From assembly GCF_033791185.1 (NCBI RefSeq), contig NZ_JASJHF010000014.1, positions 46-64,045 on the forward strand: 64,000 bases of DNA, read 5' to 3'. Shown here piece after piece: positions 53,770 through 62,212 of the stretch. The DNA comes from Moritella sp. (GTDB lineage Bacteria; Pseudomonadota; Gammaproteobacteria; Enterobacterales; Moritellaceae). The notes below the pieces were generated by a model. It made no database searches, was not told the origin of the DNA, and saw only the letters and a program-made list of their open reading frames with translations. Within the stretch, counting starts at the first letter, position 1. Each line of letters starts with the position of its first letter. Both the position numbers and the translations under genes were made by a program.

Positions 53770-55116
53770 ATGAGTGATATTAAGTTTCGACAGATCGCCG
53801 AAACCATTGAAGCTAGAATTAATACCGGTGTGTATCCAGCTAATACCAAATTACCGCCACATCGGGTGCTCGCTGATGAGCTTGAAACTACCCCTACAAC
53901 GGTGTCCAAAGCCTATAAATTATTAGCAGAGAAAAACAAAGTTGAATCCTTTGTTGGTCGCGGCACGTTTGTCTGTGGTGGTGCTGAATTGGAAACCGTG
54001 ATCCAAGCGCCAGACGATAACGCCGATTATAACTTTTCAATTTTACAGCCTTGCTTAAAACACAATATCTTACCGTTGCAGGCCGCCTTTCAACAAACCT
54101 ATGCGACATTGCCGAGTGAGTTATTGGGTTATATCGAACACTCTGGGCATTTATCCCACCGACAAGCGGGGATGAAGTGGGCGGCGGAATTTGGTTTATC
54201 GGTATTGGATCCTGACGATATACTACTTGCCAGTGGCGCGCAGAATGCACTGGCAATATTGATCCAGACCTATACCAAACCGGGCGATTGCATTGCTGTC
54301 GAAGCCTTTACGTATCCTGGTATTCTTTCTATCGCTAATTTACTCGGTCGCCGTGTTGTTGAAGTAGCGATGGATAGCGAAGGCATGTGCCCGACTGCAC
54401 TGAAAGATACTATGCTTAGCGATAAGCCAAAAGTGGTTGTCATTGTGCCGTCACATCAAAATCCAACGGGTGTAACTATGCCGCAAGGGCGTAGAGAAAG
54501 CATTGCTAAGGTGATTGCAGCGGGTAACATCTGGCTATTAGAAGATGATATTTATGGCTTTTTAAATCCAAGCGTCATTCCTGCTATCAGTAACTATATA
54601 CCGGAAAAAAGCTTTCATATTACCAGTCTGTCGAAAGCGATTAGTCCGGCGTTACGCTGTGCATTTATTAAAGCGCCAAAAAGTGAGATCCGTAAGGTCG
54701 GGGCATGTATTCGTACCTCTATCTGGCTAGCTTCACCGCTTAATTTTGCGGTGGCAACCCAATTGATTAATTCGGGGGCGGCGTTTTCTATGGCGAATAA
54801 ACAAAAACAATTGGCTGCACAGCGACAAGCGTTTGTAGCAGAGTTGCTTGGCTTCTTAGCGTGTTCGAGTCAACCGACAAGTTATCATATTTGGGTTAAG
54901 TTACCGAAAAATTGGCGACAAGAGCATTTTGTGATGGAAGCTAAAAATCAGCAGTTATTGGTGAGCAGTGGTGGTTATTTCTCGCAACAGAGTGATAAAA
55001 GTAACCATATCCGTTTATCGTTAATGGCTATTGATGACGAGCAGCGTTTTCAACAAGGTGTTGTATCGCTAGCTAATTTACTCCAAGATGGGCAAGGTTC
55101 ACACTTCCTGTTTTAA
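53770..55116 (+). CDS. MocR/GabR family PLP-dependent transcription factor
   Basis: GntR wHTH (LPPHRVLADEL...VSKAY...VGRGTFV) fused to a class I aminotransferase fold (SLSKAISPALR). Confidence 0.93.
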   Translation: MSDIKFRQIAETIEARINTGVYPANTKLPPHRVLADELETTPTTVSKAYKLLAEKNKVESFVGRGTFVCGGAELETVIQAPDDNADYNFSILQPCLKHNILPLQAAFQQTYATLPSELLGYIEHSGHLSHRQAGMKWAAEFGLSVLDPDDILLASGAQNALAILIQTYTKPGDCIAVEAFTYPGILSIANLLGRRVVEVAMDSEGMCPTALKDTMLSDKPKVVVIVPSHQNPTGVTMPQGRRESIAKVIAAGNIWLLEDDIYGFLNPSVIPAISNYIPEKSFHITSLSKAISPALRCAFIKAPKSEIRKVGACIRTSIWLASPLNFAVATQLINSGAAFSMANKQKQLAAQRQAFVAELLGFLACSSQPTSYHIWVKLPKNWRQEHFVMEAKNQQLLVSSGGYFSQQSDKSNHIRLSLMAIDDEQRFQQGVVSLANLLQDGQGSHFLF

Positions 55117-55173
55117 TTATTTTGACAGGTTAGTATGTCGACCCATAATACGGCATTAGACTAAGGAGAGTTT

Positions 55174-55800
55174 ATGTTGAAAAATACAATAACGGGCATG
55201 CTTATTTTAAGTTGTTCTGGCTGTGTTTTATTAGAAAAGAAAGATCCGCTACCACCAGTCATTGATCCCGCGGATGCAGAAGTTCCGGTATTACTATCAA
55301 CGCCAACATCGGCAGCTGAATGTGCAGGTGATATGGAGCTACCTGTCGAGTTTAGTCGTAAATTTACCGCGGTATCAGACCCCGAACTATTGGCGCAATC
55401 TATCGGTGAAGCCAATGAAGGCAAACTCTGTCAGGGTCAAGTCTATGTCGCTAAACAGAACACCCAAATAATGCTGTTTCGAGCTTGGAATGATACCAAC
55501 CCTGGCAGTGAGTTTGGGGATTGGTGGGCACTAAAAAGCCCGCGTGGACAAATAGCCCAATATCGTCGCGACTATCAAATATGTTACCAATGGTCACCAT
55601 TAGATAAAATGACGTTGTGTAGTTTAAAAGCAGGCGCGAAAGTGGTGATTGGTACAGGGCAAAGTGCCACGTGCTCATCCTATCTTGCTTATCCAAGCTC
55701 AGCTAAGAAACAAGTCTATGTAGCGAATGCCGAAGCCAATCTGTTTGATTGTAATAGCTACAATGCTGAATTTAACTGGACGCCTATTATTAGTAATTAA
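55174..55800 (+). CDS. Hypothetical Cys-rich lipoprotein, possible TNT/ART-like fold
   Basis: Signal ending LSCSGC; six further Cys; GGAG SD; fold is an inference. Confidence 0.75.
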   Translation: MLKNTITGMLILSCSGCVLLEKKDPLPPVIDPADAEVPVLLSTPTSAAECAGDMELPVEFSRKFTAVSDPELLAQSIGEANEGKLCQGQVYVAKQNTQIMLFRAWNDTNPGSEFGDWWALKSPRGQIAQYRRDYQICYQWSPLDKMTLCSLKAGAKVVIGTGQSATCSSYLAYPSSAKKQVYVANAEANLFDCNSYNAEFNWTPIISN

Positions 55801-55880
55801 TCAGCCTAATGTTATTGCTCGCAAATATTGGGCATCGTATTAAGCATCAATAGTAGCCATAAACGATAGAGTGGAAAGGT

Positions 55881-56282
55881 ATGAAATATTATCAACGTGG
55901 GGTGTTATTTGCCGCTACTGTCCTTTTCTCTAGCGTGAGTTTTGCTGCCGATAACGTCATTGTGCGTTATCAGCAGACCCATGATACGCAGTTACAATCT
56001 ATCGCCAAAAAGTTGCAGTCAGATAGCAGTATCCAAGATGCGATTAATTTGATGAATACAGAGTTTATCTTTCCGCAGCCGTTAACGATTGTCTTTGGTA
56101 GTGATGATGTGAATTATGCGTACTTGTTAGAAGACACCGGCTTTTCCGTTGAACGTGGAGATTTTTGTATCAGTGAGTATGACACGATCGCGAATAATTG
56201 GCTGACAGTATTAGCCCCTTATATGGTATCCGCTACCAAGGGTGATACAGGCGTAAATATAGAAAATGCACCCACTGAATAA
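55881..56282 (+). pseudogene. DUF4344-like exported metallopeptidase with a large in-frame internal deletion
   Basis: N-terminal (DNVIVRY...QPLTIVFGSD) and C-terminal (YAYLLE...FC..EY..I..NW) DUF4344-like blocks are joined directly; no HExxH; 133 aa. Confidence 0.6.
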
Positions 56283-56441
56283 ATAACACTCCCGATCATA
56301 AAAAGTTAAATCACACCAAATTACGTTACTATTCTCCCTGTAAATACCGCTCACACTTACGCCATTATTTTAATAATATTTATCGTTATTTTTATACTGT
56401 TTAAATTTCATACAGTTATATTTATCGCTTGTCTTTGTATA

Positions 56442-56459
56442 GTTATGTTATAACATAAC
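56442..56459. promoter_or_regulatory. Perfect 18-bp palindrome, probable second or overlapping Zur site
   Basis: GTTATGTTATAACATAAC. Confidence 0.7.
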
Positions 56460-56466
56460 AATATGT

Positions 56467-56489
56467 GAAATGTTATATTATAACAATTA
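56467..56489. promoter_or_regulatory. Zur box
   Basis: GAAATGTTATA-T-TATAACAATTA versus gammaproteobacterial consensus GAAATGTTATA-N-TATAACATTTC; abuts the SD. Confidence 0.88.
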
Positions 56490-56502
56490 AGGAAGATAAA
56501 CA

Positions 56503-57636
56503 GTGAAGAAGAAATTGGTTTCCCTCGCAATCAGTAGCATTTTGGCATCACCAGCTTTCGCTAATACATTGTCAAACCCACAAATCGGTGTGGTGCTTGA
56601 TGGCTATTATCAAAATGGTGAGCGTAATAACTCAGAGCGTAGCGAAGGATTTGGCCTCGGCCACACCGAAATTAGCATGTCCGCGAATATTGACGACAAG
56701 TTCCACGGTGTATTAACGACAGTGTTAGAAACGCATGGTGATGAAACGGAATTGCTACTAGAAGAAGCATTCATTCAAACATTAACGATGCCATATGGCT
56801 TTAATATCCGCGGTGGTCGTTTCCTGTCTGACTTCGGTTACATGAACAATCAGCATATGCATTCAGACAGCTTCGTTGAGCGACCTGTTGCTTATCGTAC
56901 TTTCTTAGGCTCTCATTATTACGATGATGGTTTACGTGCCAACCTCGTATTGCCTACTGACATGTATGTAAAACTAGGCGTTGAAGCGTTAAGTGGTAGC
57001 AAGATGTCTGCTGTGGATGATAGCACCGCCGTCGGTGTATATACCACGACATTAAAGATTGGTGATGACTTCTCTGAATCATCGAGTTGGCAGTTTGGTT
57101 TAAGTTACTTACGTAATGAAAATGGTAAAGTGACGAGTTTTGAAGAGCACAGTCATGATGAACACGGTCATGACCACAGCCACGCTTCCGCTGTGACTGG
57201 CGCGAATTTATACGGCGCTGACTTTATCTGGAAATGGGCGCCTAATGGCAATTATAAATACAGCAATTTCACCTTATCTGCAGAGTACATGCTGTTAGAT
57301 GACATTTTGGATAGCAAATTCAAAGGGGAGAAAGATGCCCCGGATACGCTAGCGGCTTATTACGTATCAGGAGTATATCGCTTCACACCAAGCTGGTCTG
57401 CGGGTATGCGCTACAGTGATGCTGAAAGTTACGACGGTCATGCTCATGGAACCCACGTACACTTAACCTCTTTGAGTGATAGCGAGATCGAAGCTATGGT
57501 GGCTTGGGATTCTTCTCACTTTGGCACTGTACGTGCGCAATATACACGTGTTGAAAACCAAGACAAAGCCACTGATAACGTATTCACGCTGCAATATGTA
57601 ATGACGTTTGGGGCGCACGGTGCTCATGCGTTTTAA
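56503..57636 (+). CDS. His-rich outer-membrane beta-barrel (porin-sized) metal uptake protein
   Basis: Signal peptide, alternating beta-strand pattern, His loops EEHSHDEHGHDHSH and GHAHGTHVH, C-terminal FGAHGAHAF; only 377 aa. Confidence 0.8.
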   Translation: MKKKLVSLAISSILASPAFANTLSNPQIGVVLDGYYQNGERNNSERSEGFGLGHTEISMSANIDDKFHGVLTTVLETHGDETELLLEEAFIQTLTMPYGFNIRGGRFLSDFGYMNNQHMHSDSFVERPVAYRTFLGSHYYDDGLRANLVLPTDMYVKLGVEALSGSKMSAVDDSTAVGVYTTTLKIGDDFSESSSWQFGLSYLRNENGKVTSFEEHSHDEHGHDHSHASAVTGANLYGADFIWKWAPNGNYKYSNFTLSAEYMLLDDILDSKFKGEKDAPDTLAAYYVSGVYRFTPSWSAGMRYSDAESYDGHAHGTHVHLTSLSDSEIEAMVAWDSSHFGTVRAQYTRVENQDKATDNVFTLQYVMTFGAHGAHAF

Positions 57637-58531
57637 GATCCATAAACTGGTGCTCGCAGCGAGTGCTGCTATTTTGACTTCTCCGGCGATGGCGTTAAAC
57701 ATCTTCGTGTGTGAACCAGAATGGCAGGCTTTGTTAGCTGCCCATGCGCCAGAGGCGACTATCTATTCGGCAACGACTGCAATGCAAGATCCGCATTACG
57801 TGCAAGCAAGACCGTCTTTAATTGCCAAGATGCGCCAAGCGGATATGGCAATGTGCTCAGGCGCTGATTTGGAAATTGGTTGGCTGCCCATGTTGCAAGC
57901 GCGAAGTGCCAATCCTGCAGTGCAAAACAATAAGCACAGTATGTTATATGCCTCTGAAATTGTCAGCATGTTGGATAAGCACGACCATGTCGATCGTAGC
58001 ATGGGTGACATTCATGCTCACGGTAATCCACATGTGCAATTTGCTGCTGACAATATGATCCGACTTTCTCGCACCATAACTAAGCGTTTGGAAACCATAG
58101 ATCCAGATAATGCACAGGCATATCGCCATAATGGGGCGGCGTTTCGTCAACATTGGCAGCAAAAGCTGGTGGAATGGCGTCAACGCGCAGCTCCGCTACG
58201 AGGTAAGCAAGTGGTGAGCTATCACGCGACTTATCGTTATCTCTTTGCGTGGTTGCAGATGACGCAAGTCGCAGACCTTGAGCCTAAACCTGGTGTTTCA
58301 CCGACCACCGCGCATTTGCAATCGTTGACCAAGTTAGACCCAGCGTCGTTTGATGCGATTATTTATTCTTCTCATCAGAATAAACGTGCGGCTAATTGGT
58401 TGCATCAGCAAACGCACAAGCCTGTGATCCAATTACCGCTAACGGTATCGAAAGAGCAGCGCCTTGACGAACTGTATGACGAGATTCTGGATGACTTGCT
58501 CAGTGTACTTGCAGAACCAGTGAAGAGCTAA
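57626..58531 (+). CDS. Cluster A-I (ZnuA/TroA-like) metal-binding periplasmic protein (ATG at 57626)
   Basis: QDPHYVQARPS, GADLE..WL, GNPHV, YHATYRYL, LEPKPGVSPT..HL. Confidence 0.9.
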   Translation: MRFKIHKLVLAASAAILTSPAMALNIFVCEPEWQALLAAHAPEATIYSATTAMQDPHYVQARPSLIAKMRQADMAMCSGADLEIGWLPMLQARSANPAVQNNKHSMLYASEIVSMLDKHDHVDRSMGDIHAHGNPHVQFAADNMIRLSRTITKRLETIDPDNAQAYRHNGAAFRQHWQQKLVEWRQRAAPLRGKQVVSYHATYRYLFAWLQMTQVADLEPKPGVSPTTAHLQSLTKLDPASFDAIIYSSHQNKRAANWLHQQTHKPVIQLPLTVSKEQRLDELYDEILDDLLSVLAEPVKS

Positions 58532-58534
58532 GCC

Positions 58535-59323
58535 ATGTTAACGGATTATCTTTGGCTAGCACCCGCTGTATTATGTGGTCTGATTGCGCTGGTGGGCAAT
58601 GTGATATTAGGGCAACAAGTGCTCGCGCGTAAGATCATTTTTATTGATTTGGCGGTAGCGCAAGTTGCTGCATTAGGCGCTGCATTTAGTCAGTATTGGC
58701 TAAGCAGTTTTGACATATTACCCGAGACTTGGTTAGGGCAAATGATCGGCCCTTGGGTATTGTCGCTGATGTTATGTGGTTTAATTGCCTTGATGGAAAA
58801 ACATTATCAGCAACATCTTGAACCTATGATCGGTAGTCTGTTTGTAGTTTCTGCTTCATTGGCGATTTTACTGGCAAGTAAAGACCCGCACGGGGCTGAC
58901 TTTATTCAAGGGATATTAAATGGTCAGTTGTTATGGGCTACGTGGGATGATGTTTGGCCGTTAGCAATCATTACAGCAGCGATGTTGGCTTTAGTGACTA
59001 TGAAACCGGCATTTATGCAGGGGCGTGGATTTTACGTTATCTTCGCTATATTGATGCCAATAACGGTGAAATTGACGGGTATCTACCTTGAATTTGCGTT
59101 ATTGGTGATCCCTGCGTTATGTGCATCCGCTTTAAAAGGTATACGGTTTTTTATCGCGAGCATGGGCATTGGCGTAATGGGTATTATGTCGGGAATCGTA
59201 TTGTCAGCACATTATGATTTCCCCAGTGGTGCCAGTATCGTGATTACGTTATTTGTCTCTGGTGTATTGTTTCATTTATTGCTGCAACCTTTGTTGCTTA
59301 AGACTGACGTTCGCGCGTCATAG
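58535..59323 (+). CDS. ABC-3 (ZnuB-like) metal permease
   Basis: FIDLAVAQVAALG, GQLLWATW, ALLVIPA, YDFPSGASIV. Confidence 0.88.
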   Translation: MLTDYLWLAPAVLCGLIALVGNVILGQQVLARKIIFIDLAVAQVAALGAAFSQYWLSSFDILPETWLGQMIGPWVLSLMLCGLIALMEKHYQQHLEPMIGSLFVVSASLAILLASKDPHGADFIQGILNGQLLWATWDDVWPLAIITAAMLALVTMKPAFMQGRGFYVIFAILMPITVKLTGIYLEFALLVIPALCASALKGIRFFIASMGIGVMGIMSGIVLSAHYDFPSGASIVITLFVSGVLFHLLLQPLLLKTDVRAS

Positions 59324-59343
59324 ACTAACATCAGCATATAAAT

Positions 59344-59383
59344 AAAGGCCTGATTTCAGTATATATCTGGGATCAGGCCTTTT
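59344..59383. terminator. Bidirectional terminator between the metal uptake operon and yfbR
   Basis: AAAGGCCTGATTTCAG-TATATAT-CTGGGATCAGGCCTTTT. Confidence 0.8.
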
Positions 59384-59422
59384 ATTATAAACTTGATTTC
59401 TTCACTTCACGTTAATGGCGTA

Positions 59423-60001
59423 TTAATCCATATCATCAAACGGCTGACCTATACTGGGTAAGAATACATCAAGGAAATATCGAATTTCATCAGTCATGCG
59501 ATCATCAAGGGCGGTTTTACAGCGTAATTTTGCTTTTGAAAATTCATGATTACCGCAGCTTTCTTCTTCAATACATTTCATGTGTGCACACAGAATATCA
59601 GCGTCTTTGACTAACTGTTTATACGTTGGGTCTAGATCGGGCGTTGATAATAACGGTTTGTAAGCATCACGTAATTCCACTGGCAGCATGTCTAATAACG
59701 TCTGCTCTGCGGCTAACTCAATCTTGTTATATTCTCGAATGATGGCTTTATTATAATATTTCACTGGGGTAGGTAAGTCGCCAGTTAGCACTTCGGTAGT
59801 ATCGTGGAACAAGGCCATTGACGCCGCTTTGTCTGGATCATAGCTTTTGCCGTAATAAGTATTGCCAATTAAGGCAAGGGCATGGGCAACCATCGCCACT
59901 TGTAAGCTGTGCTCGGCTATATTCTCGTGCGTAACGTTACGCATCAACGGCCAGCGGTAAATGAGTTTCATGCGGGCGAGGTGGGCAAAAAAATGGCTCA
60001 T
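59423..60001 (-). CDS. yfbR: 5'-deoxynucleotidase (HD family), ATG at 60001
   Basis: MSHFFAHLARMKLIYRWPLMRN..ENIAEHS, LFHD..EVLTGDLPTPVKY, VKDAD. Confidence 0.95.
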   Translation of the reverse strand: MSHFFAHLARMKLIYRWPLMRNVTHENIAEHSLQVAMVAHALALIGNTYYGKSYDPDKAASMALFHDTTEVLTGDLPTPVKYYNKAIIREYNKIELAAEQTLLDMLPVELRDAYKPLLSTPDLDPTYKQLVKDADILCAHMKCIEEESCGNHEFSKAKLRCKTALDDRMTDEIRYFLDVFLPSIGQPFDDMD

Positions 60002-60259
60002 AACGTTCTCCAAATAAGAAAGGCACCTCATGACAATACAGGCTAGGTGCACGTAAGTCATCGGTTTCATTACTGTAGCATGAGTTAGGAGGTGGCGAGT
60101 GTTTAAATATCACTTTGATGGCGCTAGCCGTTATATCAATGAATTAGTCGAAAGCAGCTTACATATAAGAATAGGTACGCGCAGTCGATATCTTATGTTG
60201 AACAAGCCAGAAGCTCTTTTTTATATAGCAAATTGTGAGTTCAATTTAGGAGGAAAGAC

Positions 60260-60284
60260 AAAAAGGCGTCATAACGACGCCTTT
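60260..60284 (-). terminator. Terminator of alaA
   Basis: Minus strand AAAGGCGTC-GTTAT-GACGCCTTTTT. Confidence 0.8.
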
Positions 60285-60315
60285 CTGATATCTACTTCTG
60301 TATTATAACCGCAAA

Positions 60316-61533
60316 CTAATCTTGGCGATAACTCTTCAAGAAATTCGCTAGTTTGTTAATCGCAACAGTCAGCTCTTCAACACGTGGTAAGAATACTACG
60401 CGGAAGTGATCGGGGCGACCCCAGTTAAAACCAGTGCCTTGTACAATCAATAACTTTTCTTGTTGTAACAAGTCTAAGGCAAATTTCTGATCGTCTTTGA
60501 TGTTGTACATCTCTGTATCAATCTTCGGGAAAAGATACATCGCGCCTTTTGGTTTCACACACGAGATACCCGGAATTTCATTTAACATCTTCCAGGCTAA
60601 ATCACGCTGTTCCAGTAAACGGCCGCCCGGTAGAATCAATTCATTAATACTTTGATAGCCACCTAACGCCGTTTGTATCGCATGTTGCATCGGTACGTTA
60701 GAGCACAGACGCATCGAGGCCAGCATTTCCAATCCGGCAATGTAGTCTTTAGCAAGGTGGGTTGCACCGCTTAATACTAACCAACCAGAACGGAAACCAG
60801 CAATACGGTAAGCTTTAGACAAACCATTGAAAGTCACAATCAGGATATCTTGCGCCAGTGTACACATAGGCACATGCTCAACACCGTCATATAAGATCTT
60901 GTCATAGATTTCATCAGCAAAAATAATCAGTCTGTTCTGACGCGCAACTTCAATGACTTCAAGCAAGAATTCTTTGCTGTATACTGCACCCGTTGGGTTG
61001 TTCGGATTGATTAGAACAATGCCTTTGGTATTCGGGGTTATCTTGGCTTTAATATCATCCAGATCCGGATACCAATCAGATTCTTCATCACAAATGTAGT
61101 GCGTTGCTTTACCACCCGAAAGGGTAATTGCGGCGGTCCACAATGGATAATCCGGTGACGGTACTAAGATCTCATCACCGTTATTCAGTAATGCCTGCAT
61201 CGACATCATGATTAATTCTGATACACCGTTACCCAAATAAATGTCGTCAATTGATACATCCAACAGACCTTTCTGTTGGTAATGTTGCATCACAGCTTTG
61301 CGCGCAGAATATAACCCTTTTGAGTCACAATAACCTTGGCTTAACGGCAGGTTATGAATAACGTCTTTTACGATTTCTTCTGGGGCTTCAAAACCAAATG
61401 GGGCGGGATTCCCGATGTTTAATTTTATTACTCGGTGACCTTCTTCTTCTAAGCGATTCGCTTCTTTTAATACTGGCCCACGTATGTCGTAACACACGTT
61501 ATCTAACTTATGAGATTTTTCTATTGAGTACAT
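60316..61533 (-). CDS. alaA: Glutamate-pyruvate aminotransferase
   Basis: KSHKLDNVCYDIRGPV, LNIGNPAPFGF, NGLSKAYRIAGFRSGW; adjacent to yfbR as in E. coli. Confidence 0.95.
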   Translation of the reverse strand: MYSIEKSHKLDNVCYDIRGPVLKEANRLEEEGHRVIKLNIGNPAPFGFEAPEEIVKDVIHNLPLSQGYCDSKGLYSARKAVMQHYQQKGLLDVSIDDIYLGNGVSELIMMSMQALLNNGDEILVPSPDYPLWTAAITLSGGKATHYICDEESDWYPDLDDIKAKITPNTKGIVLINPNNPTGAVYSKEFLLEVIEVARQNRLIIFADEIYDKILYDGVEHVPMCTLAQDILIVTFNGLSKAYRIAGFRSGWLVLSGATHLAKDYIAGLEMLASMRLCSNVPMQHAIQTALGGYQSINELILPGGRLLEQRDLAWKMLNEIPGISCVKPKGAMYLFPKIDTEMYNIKDDQKFALDLLQQEKLLIVQGTGFNWGRPDHFRVVFLPRVEELTVAINKLANFLKSYRQD

Positions 61534-61759
61534 CCCGTCTCCACCGCTTTAATTATGTTTGTTGTTAATCTTTCTGTAATAAAAGTACCGTATATAAGGC
61601 ATTGTTGGAAGTGATATTTGGTGTTCTACACGATTTATTGTTGCGTCATTGTTAATTGATAAGATTCGGGTGTAACATTATCAGCAATGGTTACCAGATT
61701 GCGGTAATTTTGTGAGAGTATTGTTGTATTACAACGCTAAATTGAATCAAGGAAAGAAC

Positions 61760-62212
61760 ATGAGCCAGCAATTAAACCCCGCAAAAATGAGTGGATTACA
61801 GATTTTACAAGCGATGACAGAAGGGCTTTACCCCCATCCATCTATTTGCGACACCATGCCAATGCATTGTGTTGATGTCAGCGAAGGGTATATTCACTTT
61901 AGTGTACAGGCCGATGATCGTCATTTAAATCCGATGGGTGGTGTACACGGTGGCTTTGCAGCAACGGTACTCGATTCAGTGACTGGCTGCGCGACACATA
62001 CGACATTGGCTGCTGGTGAGAATTATGGCACGGTAGATTTGAATGTAAAAATGGTGCGCCCGATCCCAAAAGATACGCTGTTATATGCTAAGGGTAAGGT
62101 ATTAAACGTATCTAGAACGGTGGTTATCTCTGAAGGTGATATTCGTGATGCGGAGGGTAAGCTTTATGCCCACTGTACGGCAACCTGTGTGATCACTCGT
62201 CGAGTTAAATAG
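61760..62212 (+). CDS. PaaI family hotdog thioesterase (ATG at 61760)
   Basis: HLNPMGGVHGGFAATVLDS..GCA, TVDLNVKMVRP. Confidence 0.9.
   Translation: MSQQLNPAKMSGLQILQAMTEGLYPHPSICDTMPMHCVDVSEGYIHFSVQADDRHLNPMGGVHGGFAATVLDSVTGCATHTTLAAGENYGTVDLNVKMVRPIPKDTLLYAKGKVLNVSRTVVISEGDIRDAEGKLYAHCTATCVITRRVK

Follow-up and report, generated by a model that had tools for sequence, protein, structure and literature searches.

Can a periplasmic binding protein and a membrane permease of the ATP-binding cassette (ABC) type take up zinc when no ATPase is encoded with them? This question is raised by a three-gene operon of Moritella sp. (assembly GCF_033791185.1, contig NZ_JASJHF010000014.1), which lies in a 64,000-nucleotide stretch of DNA, hereafter the window, whose coordinates equal genome coordinates minus 45. 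The operon is a compact unit (window 56442-59390) of Zur-type operators, three genes and a hairpin. The genes, all on the + strand, encode a predicted porin-like outer-membrane protein (56503..57636; GTG start, 377 aa), the binding protein ZnuA2 (57626..58531; 301 aa from the ATG at 57626, with a TTG at 57608 as an alternative start) and the permease ZnuB2 (58535..59323; 262 aa). A sequence-only reading of the window had described tightly coupled genes with no ABC ATPase and had suggested that the uptake might be ATP-independent or differently energised. The coordinates confirm the coupling, with an 11-nt overlap between the outer-membrane protein and ZnuA2 genes and a 3-nt gap between those for ZnuA2 and ZnuB2, and no ABC ATPase open reading frame (ORF) was found at window 54000-62000. 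We show below that the suggested mode of uptake also gains support from the deletion of the helix that couples such permeases to their ATPase, from the absence of an ATPase gene in all homologous operons surveyed and from the lack of ZnuB/ZnuC in more than half of the carriers. On this comparative basis, we lean, with somewhat better than even confidence, towards the view that the operon encodes a binding-protein-dependent, ATPase-independent zinc uptake route.

The permease and its coupling helix

ZnuB2 is a weak member of the Pfam family ABC-3 (PF00950, 53 bits versus a cut-off of 20.1) and reaches 24.1 bits on the ZnuB equivalog NF007089 (cut-off 284), which, like the ZnuA model NF007091 used below, is an NCBIfam model. 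The AlphaFold2 monomer model of ZnuB2 (predicted local distance difference test, pLDDT, 91.4) was matched by Foldseek to the manganese permease PsaC (7KYP; TM-score 0.72, probability 1.00, E 1.8e-7), so that ZnuB2 is predicted to be a permease of the type II ABC-importer fold (PsaC/ZnuB fold). In E. coli ZnuB, the long transmembrane helix 5 (TM5) extends out into the cytosol and leads to helix alpha-2 (154-162), the coupling helix that contacts the Q-loop of ZnuC (PMC12236471; cryo-electron microscopy entries of ZnuBC, 9OKO-9OKR). DSSP assigns TM5 of the ZnuB2 model to residues 137-156 (20 residues), a one-turn helix to 159-162 and TM6 to 165-181, the topology and the sidedness of the loops being taken from the ZnuB description.

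The sequence-only reading had estimated the coupling stretch to be roughly 15 residues shorter than in E. coli ZnuB and had proposed a structure prediction as a check for a normal coupling helix. The shortening is real and measures 19 residues, and between TM5 and TM6 the monomer model has only a 4-residue turn. In a MAFFT alignment of ZnuB2, E. coli ZnuB, the two canonical ABC-3 permeases of Moritella and two canonical ZnuB from other genomes, one clean gap covers WRNLLSMTISPDLAFVDGV; the deletion removes the last part of TM5 together with the coupling helix, which in E. coli ZnuB reads SPDLAFVDG. What is left at this site is a TM5-TM6 cytoplasmic loop of residues 155-165 (MKPAFMQGRGF; 58997..59029, + strand).

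Most of the family shares the deletion. We measured the distance from the Gly of the G-x-L-L/W motif to the Pro of the I-P-A motif, both invariant, and found it to be 82 residues in all 25 canonical permeases (E. coli ZnuB and 24 others), 59-64 residues in 126 of the 131 ZnuB2-family sequences (most often 63, which is also the value of Moritella ZnuB2) and 75-80 in the other five, which form a small sister clade. Across the 131 sequences, conservation of the residual loop is 1-4 on a 0-9 scale, the lowest in the body of the protein, and that of the canonical coupling helix is 5-9. Moreover, the Pfam ABC-3 profile often matches ZnuB2 relatives in two pieces, skipping ~20-30 positions around 140-172. 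As judged from the alignments and the model, the ATPase-coupling helix is absent from ZnuB2.

Homologous operons and the possibility of a borrowed ATPase

Homologous loci were compared in three sets. The first (n = 43) comprised three loci obtained through protein look-ups (V. parahaemolyticus, Shewanella maritima, Endozoicomonas elysicola) and 40 from an even sample of the class, and 42 of them had the full porin-binding protein-permease order. All seven further loci of the second set, five of which came from the sister clade, were triplets. The third set, 80 loci from named genomes, yielded 76 triplets, three loci cut by contig ends and one permease alone. Named carriers include Vibrio, Photobacterium, Shewanella, Colwellia, Ferrimonas, Lysobacterales, Thiomargarita and Woeseiaceae, as well as Propionivibrio, Thiobacillus, Rhizomicrobium, Rhodospirillaceae and Mariprofundus. 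The gene order was invariant across the ~125 homologous operons from Alpha-, Beta-, Gamma- and Zetaproteobacteria, and a survey of these operons for an ATPase, which had been proposed from the sequence alone, found such a gene inside none of them. Of 401 genomes sampled evenly from the class, 77 carried the ZnuB2 family, which matched at least 591 species-level genomes and comprised 417 clusters at 50% identity (E 1e-10 or better).

ABC ATPase ORFs occurred within 3.5 kb of the triplet at a few loci only. At L059 and L085 they belong to a canonical divergent znuA/znuCB, and at L137, L182, L200 and L214 the ATPase lies on the opposite strand; we rejected all of these as hidden operon ATPases. 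The same holds for L086 and L088, where the gene of a 201-aa ATPase runs into the start of that for its own partner, a protein of 265 aa with five transmembrane helices, and thus represents a neighbouring operon. At L181, a same-strand ATPase ORF is found 1.2 kb downstream of the triplet. The ZnuGHI system of Caulobacter was likewise set aside as a candidate for the same system, being an ABC-2 system with its own ATPase.

Several side observations were made during this comparison. The pair directly downstream of the triplet in the two related genomes (L086:4823-6219 and L088:5447-6837) reads, by architecture only, as a metal-related, fetAB-like ABC pair. A ZnuB2-type permease stands alone at L194, in a metagenome-assembled genome labelled Bordetella parapertussis. 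Among loci with sufficient flanking DNA it is the only such case, which could be explained by misbinning of the contig or by a genuine solitary copy. Clustering the flanking ORFs of 130 loci gave no fourth conserved gene, apart from spurious antisense ORFs and a small protein whose gene immediately precedes that of the porin in 16 of them. This protein of ~105 aa has a hydrophobic N-terminus and a CxxC-like motif (e.g., L150:2432-2740 in Shewanella and the 96-aa gene at 3436-3726 of L007), and it could be a lineage-specific accessory component.

A missing ATPase gene and a deletion in the permease are also what a decaying ZnuABC remnant that has lost znuC would leave behind. However, the architecture and the deletion are both kept in four proteobacterial classes, the reading frames are uninterrupted, numerous residues are invariant, and the permeases form a well-supported clade; in addition, strong induction by zinc limitation and a mutant phenotype have been reported, as described below. 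The conservation data effectively refute this reading, and we consider a relic scarcely credible.

Maximum-likelihood analysis supports the main clade at 0.90 and the sister clade at 0.97 and unites the two with a support of 0.99; the joined ZnuB2 clade is separated from the canonical permeases by a long branch. The sister clade ('sub2'; L121-L125, corresponding to G018, G257, G200, G074 and G307) is likewise found in ATPase-less triplets, in genomes without a ZnuC-like gene. Its loop is near full length, with the canonical A...G signature gone and the sequence degenerated. One of these genomes, G074, holds one copy of each clade. The simplest history would be that the ATPase was lost once, that the coupling helix, by then without a use, decayed, and that it was finally deleted in the main clade; the loss of the ATPase is placed before the deletion because sub2, without an operon ATPase, keeps a degenerate loop. 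Such an order of events would be a prediction of ATPase independence and hard to reconcile with routine borrowing.

Whether an ATPase could be supplied by another locus was examined in 76 carriers besides Moritella, some of them metagenome-assembled. A canonical ABC-3 permease was absent from 40 of the 76, where the only ABC-3 matches were the ZnuB2-type gene; these 40 include single-contig genomes, and many are 97-100% complete. For roughly half of its hosts, the ZnuB2 module may be the sole zinc importer of the ZnuAB type. We also searched 39 carriers without a canonical permease with the ZnuC profile, and 37 of them had nothing above ~105 bits; control genomes with znuCB scored 276-329 bits. 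The ATPase of a genuine ABC-3 system in one genome (G324) reaches only 87 bits on this profile, which disqualifies the profile as a universal ATPase detector. Consequently, the genome-wide negative is strong where ZnuC orthologues are concerned but weaker with regard to unusual ATPases.

Two genomes were inspected gene by gene. The single-contig genome G122 (1.47 Mb) has ten ABC ATPase genes, each of which is membrane-fused, has a likely membrane partner nearby or belongs to another known system: a YejF-like double ATPase, LptB, PstB, CcmA, two of the LolD/YbbA type, two ABC-2 ATPases with adjacent permeases and two fused exporters. In the complete, high-GC genome G164, the seemingly orphan ATPases are named by NCBIfam as LptB, FtsE, PotA-like, YbbA, LolD(-like), DevA-like, ModC, MlaF and GldA-like, and one ATPase without an NCBIfam name has membrane ORFs upstream; the ORF and hydrophobicity maps of this genome are noisy.

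The Moritella genome itself holds two ABC-3 systems with their own ATPases. One of them, an ATPase-permease-ZnuA operon (C278:10145-11772) preceded by tandem Zur boxes (C278:11943-11991), is the canonical zinc ABC importer of the genome. Its ATPase reaches 116 bits on the E. coli ZnuC equivalog, far below the cut-off of 306, and the genome is therefore without an E. coli-type ZnuC.

These data bear on a reading in which the operon encodes an ordinary ABC importer whose ATPase acts in trans, ZnuB2 recruiting ZnuC or another unlinked nucleotide-binding protein, in the manner of those sugar ABC importers that have a single ATPase in common. ZnuB2 is a clear ABC-3 homologue with the fold of that family, and a canonical znuA/znuCB adjoins the triplet in 2 of the 43 loci of the first set. 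Several further points weigh against ATPase independence. We know of no type II or binding-protein-dependent ABC permease that functions without an ATPase, and a high-affinity binding protein does not normally give up its metal without an input of energy. In Moritella, gene content alone leaves room for borrowing, given the two ABC-3 ATPase systems, one of them behind the same tandem Zur boxes; 36 of the 76 other carriers do have ABC-3 systems with ATPases; and, as the score in G324 illustrates, most genomes have room for an unusual, unlinked ATPase. The loop is near full length in sub2, and in the Moritella/Vibrio group a one-turn remnant (P-AFMQG) persists where the coupling helix would lie and might yet make contact with a partner. 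Finally, the znuA2 phenotype of V. parahaemolyticus is weak and strain-dependent, and was obtained in strains that have ZnuC (PMC3794297, PMC9817125).

Set against borrowing, the docking helix is deleted and the residual loop unconserved, whereas known shared-ATPase systems retain their coupling motifs. More than half of the carriers (40 of 76) have no canonical ABC-3 permease, nearly all of those tested (37 of 39) have no ZnuC-like ATPase, and none of the ten ABC ATPase genes of G122 looks free. Considering both sides, we regard an ATPase in trans as unlikely, though a possibility of some weight. As for the wider claim, the evidence leaves us evenly divided on whether ZnuB2 is the first ABC-importer membrane domain to have turned into an ATPase-independent, binding-protein-dependent carrier or channel, a third kind beside TRAP and TTT. 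As part of the same joint claim, and with the same even judgement, the ZnuB2 family would have arisen once, as the support of 0.99 suggests, and been disseminated across Proteobacteria along with a dedicated porin for zinc.

From the outer membrane to the cytoplasm

The first gene product carries a signal peptide and matched no Pfam or NCBIfam family. Its 1776 homologues are mostly named 'hypothetical', and one relative has a Porin_4 match below the cut-off. An AlphaFold2 model based on 29 homologues (pLDDT 81.3) shows 16 beta-strands and no plug, and its top Foldseek matches are OprP, chitoporin, OmpT, Omp32 and OmpF/OmpC (E to 5.6e-11, TM-score ~0.55). The published Vibrionaceae annotation, from which the label 'omr' comes, makes this protein a TonB-dependent receptor, which its size and fold prediction contradict. 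We reject that assignment because the protein has 377 aa, 16 rather than 22 strands, no plug and no Plug or TonB_dep_Rec match, and because porins are its best structural matches. It is thus predicted to be a porin-like barrel and not a TonB-dependent receptor, in agreement with the sequence-only reading, which had judged it too small for one.

The same reading had drawn attention to His-rich loops and a His-rich C-terminus, and these are seen across the 29 aligned homologues. A long loop (residues 109-139) contains the invariant His/Asp motifs NNQHxHxD and HYYDDG and, by analogy with porin loop 3, probably lines the constriction of the porin. The His-rich loop at 206-234 is variable, and the C-terminal GAHGAHxF is conserved.

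ZnuA2 is a cluster A-I periplasmic zinc-binding protein (PF01297, E 2.5e-32) that scores 30.8 bits on the ZnuA equivalog NF007091 (cut-off 268) and also falls far below the AztC cut-off. Aligned with Synechocystis ZnuA (1PQ4) and AdcA, it keeps the three zinc His motifs (QDPH, GNPH, YHATY). It is the orthologue of V. parahaemolyticus Vpa1307 (VP_RS21425), which has been described as a new ZnuA subfamily, whose deletion in strain VP3218 impaired growth under zinc depletion and whose metal-binding histidines matter for activity (PMC3794297). In strain RIMD2210633, the effect of a znuA2 deletion was visible only in combination with a zrgA deletion (PMC9817125).

In ZnuB2, the residues D38, Q43 and E96 are invariant in 131 of 131 family sequences and the membrane core is highly conserved. 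Asp38 aligns with ZnuB Asp36, and ZnuB His40 is replaced by an invariant Gln; both His40 and Asp36 have been reported to matter for ZnuB function. A (D/N)PHG motif that is specific to the ZnuB2 family precedes a periplasmic helix. The replacement of His40, the want of a motor and the weak single-mutant phenotype of V. parahaemolyticus RIMD2210633 would suit a protein that is not a transporter but a dock or gate for ZnuA2, the latter acting as a periplasmic zinc buffer or chaperone, or else a zinc sensor, with other carriers importing the metal. However, the invariance of the cavity residues together with the conserved membrane core is the pattern expected of a permeation path, the strict coupling of the three genes with a porin fits a transport chain, and in the 40 carriers without canonical ABC-3 permeases there is no other ZnuAB-like system. 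We therefore find a non-transporting ZnuB2 quite improbable.

On the preferred reading, that of an ATPase-independent transport route, the following sequence of events is conceivable. When zinc is scarce, Zur would vacate both promoter-overlapping operators, and transcription would run through the three genes as one unit. Zinc would diffuse across the outer membrane through the 16-strand, His/Asp-lined barrel without TonB, the barrel presenting a His/Asp-rich loop inside, a His-rich loop outside and the GAHGAHxF tail towards the periplasm. ZnuA2 would capture periplasmic zinc at its classical three-His site and, once loaded, dock on a ZnuB2 dimer. ZnuB2 itself would derive from ABC type II permeases, having shed its nucleotide-binding partner and, in the main clade, the coupling helix as well. 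Zinc would then traverse the Asp38/Gln43/Glu96 cavity without a dedicated ATPase, down its electrochemical gradient, driven by a membrane potential that is negative inside and by the very low level of free zinc in the cytoplasm, as in uniporter-type metal carriers. Ligand exchange onto (D/N)PHG at the periplasmic mouth is one way in which ZnuA2 might release its zinc. The substrate path, the dimer, the gating by the binding protein and the energy source are what we infer from the comparison. Thermodynamics permit ATP-free import: free cytoplasmic zinc is buffered to extremely low levels, the membrane potential is inside-negative, and carriers of the ZIP family bring in zinc without ATP.

Zinc regulon, neighbouring genes and known relatives

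The tandem Zur-type sites and the closing terminator noticed by the sequence-only reading are both borne out. Zur box 1 (56446..56460) is a perfect match to TGTTATNNTATAACA on the - strand, forms the core of a perfect 18-nt palindrome, GTTATGTTATAACATAAC (56443-56460), and overlaps a -35-like hexamer. Zur box 2 (TGTTATATTATAACA; 56471..56485) is a perfect match on both strands and overlaps a -10-like hexamer that ends at 56479. The promoter-like site formed by this -35/-10 pair (ATAACA, 18 nt, TG-TATATT; 56450..56479, + strand) is a pattern match only, found by a consensus scan with 9/12 matches and an extended -10 TG. Perfect matches to TGTTATNNTATAACA occur at only four loci of the 4.08-Mb genome, all of them metal-uptake loci; the other three precede a znuCBA-like ABC-3 operon (tandem boxes), a pair of DUF1007 and NicO genes and the gene of a His-rich membrane protein. 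Since the motif is confined to these four loci, it marks a zinc regulon rather than a chance match. On this distribution, the three-gene operon is a member of the Zur regulon, with Zur binding predicted in Moritella.

Two of the other Zur-box loci are worth describing. A perfect box at C278:7123-7137, just upstream of the znuCBA-like operon, precedes a 229-aa gene (DUF1007-like) and a NicO-family membrane protein, a pair that resembles the ZevAB zinc system of Haemophilus. Another perfect box, at C123:54-68, stands ahead of a gene whose membrane-protein product, 490 aa or longer, contains an extended His-rich loop (HIDDHVGHDDHAGHD...HAGHAHS) and is probably another zinc carrier.

Downstream, the operon is closed by an intrinsic terminator hairpin of 16 bp with A- and U-tracts on either side (59344..59382). 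A simple scan missed this hairpin; RNA folding recovered it (-29.1 kcal/mol, z -7.31), and 0 of 200 shuffles folded as well. It sits between the operon and the convergent yfbR (59423-60070, - strand) and is likely bidirectional and common to both. Directly upstream of the operon, a 133-aa ORF (55881-56282), flanked on its other side by a lipoprotein gene (55174-55800), matches only the last 42 positions of DUF4344, a putative metallopeptidase, and represents either the remnant of a truncated gene or a short and divergent variant. The best match to the permease is that of Moritella sp. F3 (94% identical). The operon had no match in the plasmid collection searched, and we rejected a plasmid or mobile origin on that ground.

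The module itself is already known. It is catalogued as omr-znuA2-znuB2 in Vibrionaceae, following RegPrecise naming, and in RNA-seq data the orthologous operon of V. parahaemolyticus, listed there as omr-znuAII-znuBII, was induced 283-1034-fold by zinc limitation (PMC9817125). The missing ATPase and the deleted helix are not discussed in PMC3794297 or PMC9817125, and the literature searched held no mechanistic study of an ATPase-less design; the sequence-only reading had anticipated as much in stating that similar triplets may be annotated elsewhere and that it knew of no mechanistic study. As far as the literature searched shows, what is new is the predicted porin-like nature of the 'receptor', the absence of an ATPase from every operon surveyed, the deletion of the helix and the frequent standing of the module as sole ZnuAB-like system.

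ABC importers are defined by the ATP-driven coupling of a binding protein, a permease and an ATPase, and the operon would represent a new class of transporter if its energetics were confirmed. A large natural family would then show that the ABC-importer fold can run on another energy source, and would offer a minimal system for studying the transfer of metal from a binding protein to a membrane pore. If true, this would also define a new family of zinc-selective porins, correct the annotations 'TonB-dependent receptor' and 'metal ABC transporter permease' in hundreds of genomes and change the reconstruction of zinc acquisition for many marine and soil Proteobacteria without ZnuBC.

Among known systems, that of V. 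parahaemolyticus (Vpa1307; VP_RS21430-21420) is the same module, with the same gene order and overlaps and a permease 72% identical to that of Moritella. Like ZnuABC of the E. coli type, the operon combines Zur control, a cluster A-I three-His binding protein and a permease of the same fold and Pfam family, and ZnuB and ZnuB2 have in common the TM2 Asp (Asp36/Asp38) and the GxLL, IPA and D-x-P-x-G motifs. It differs from ZnuABC in that there is no ZnuC, 19 residues of the permease are gone, His40 is replaced by Gln, the (D/N)PHG motif is present, an outer-membrane gene is included and the proteins score far below the ZnuA and ZnuB equivalog cut-offs. In the fold library searched, the solved structure nearest to the ZnuB2 model is PsaC of PsaBCA (7KYP), which shares 17-18% identity with ZnuB2 and works with the PsaB ATPase. 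The outer-membrane protein resembles OprP and other 16-strand porins in its predicted strand count and in its Foldseek scores (E to 5.6e-11); unlike them, it belongs to no porin sequence family, its TM-score is only ~0.55, and the His/Asp loops and the GAHGAHxF tail are features of its own family. In TRAP and TTT systems, a periplasmic binding protein feeds an ATPase-less membrane carrier, which is the same working principle as that proposed for ZnuA2 and ZnuB2. Their folds are unrelated and their cargo consists of organic anions, and the likeness is therefore one of analogy, not homology.

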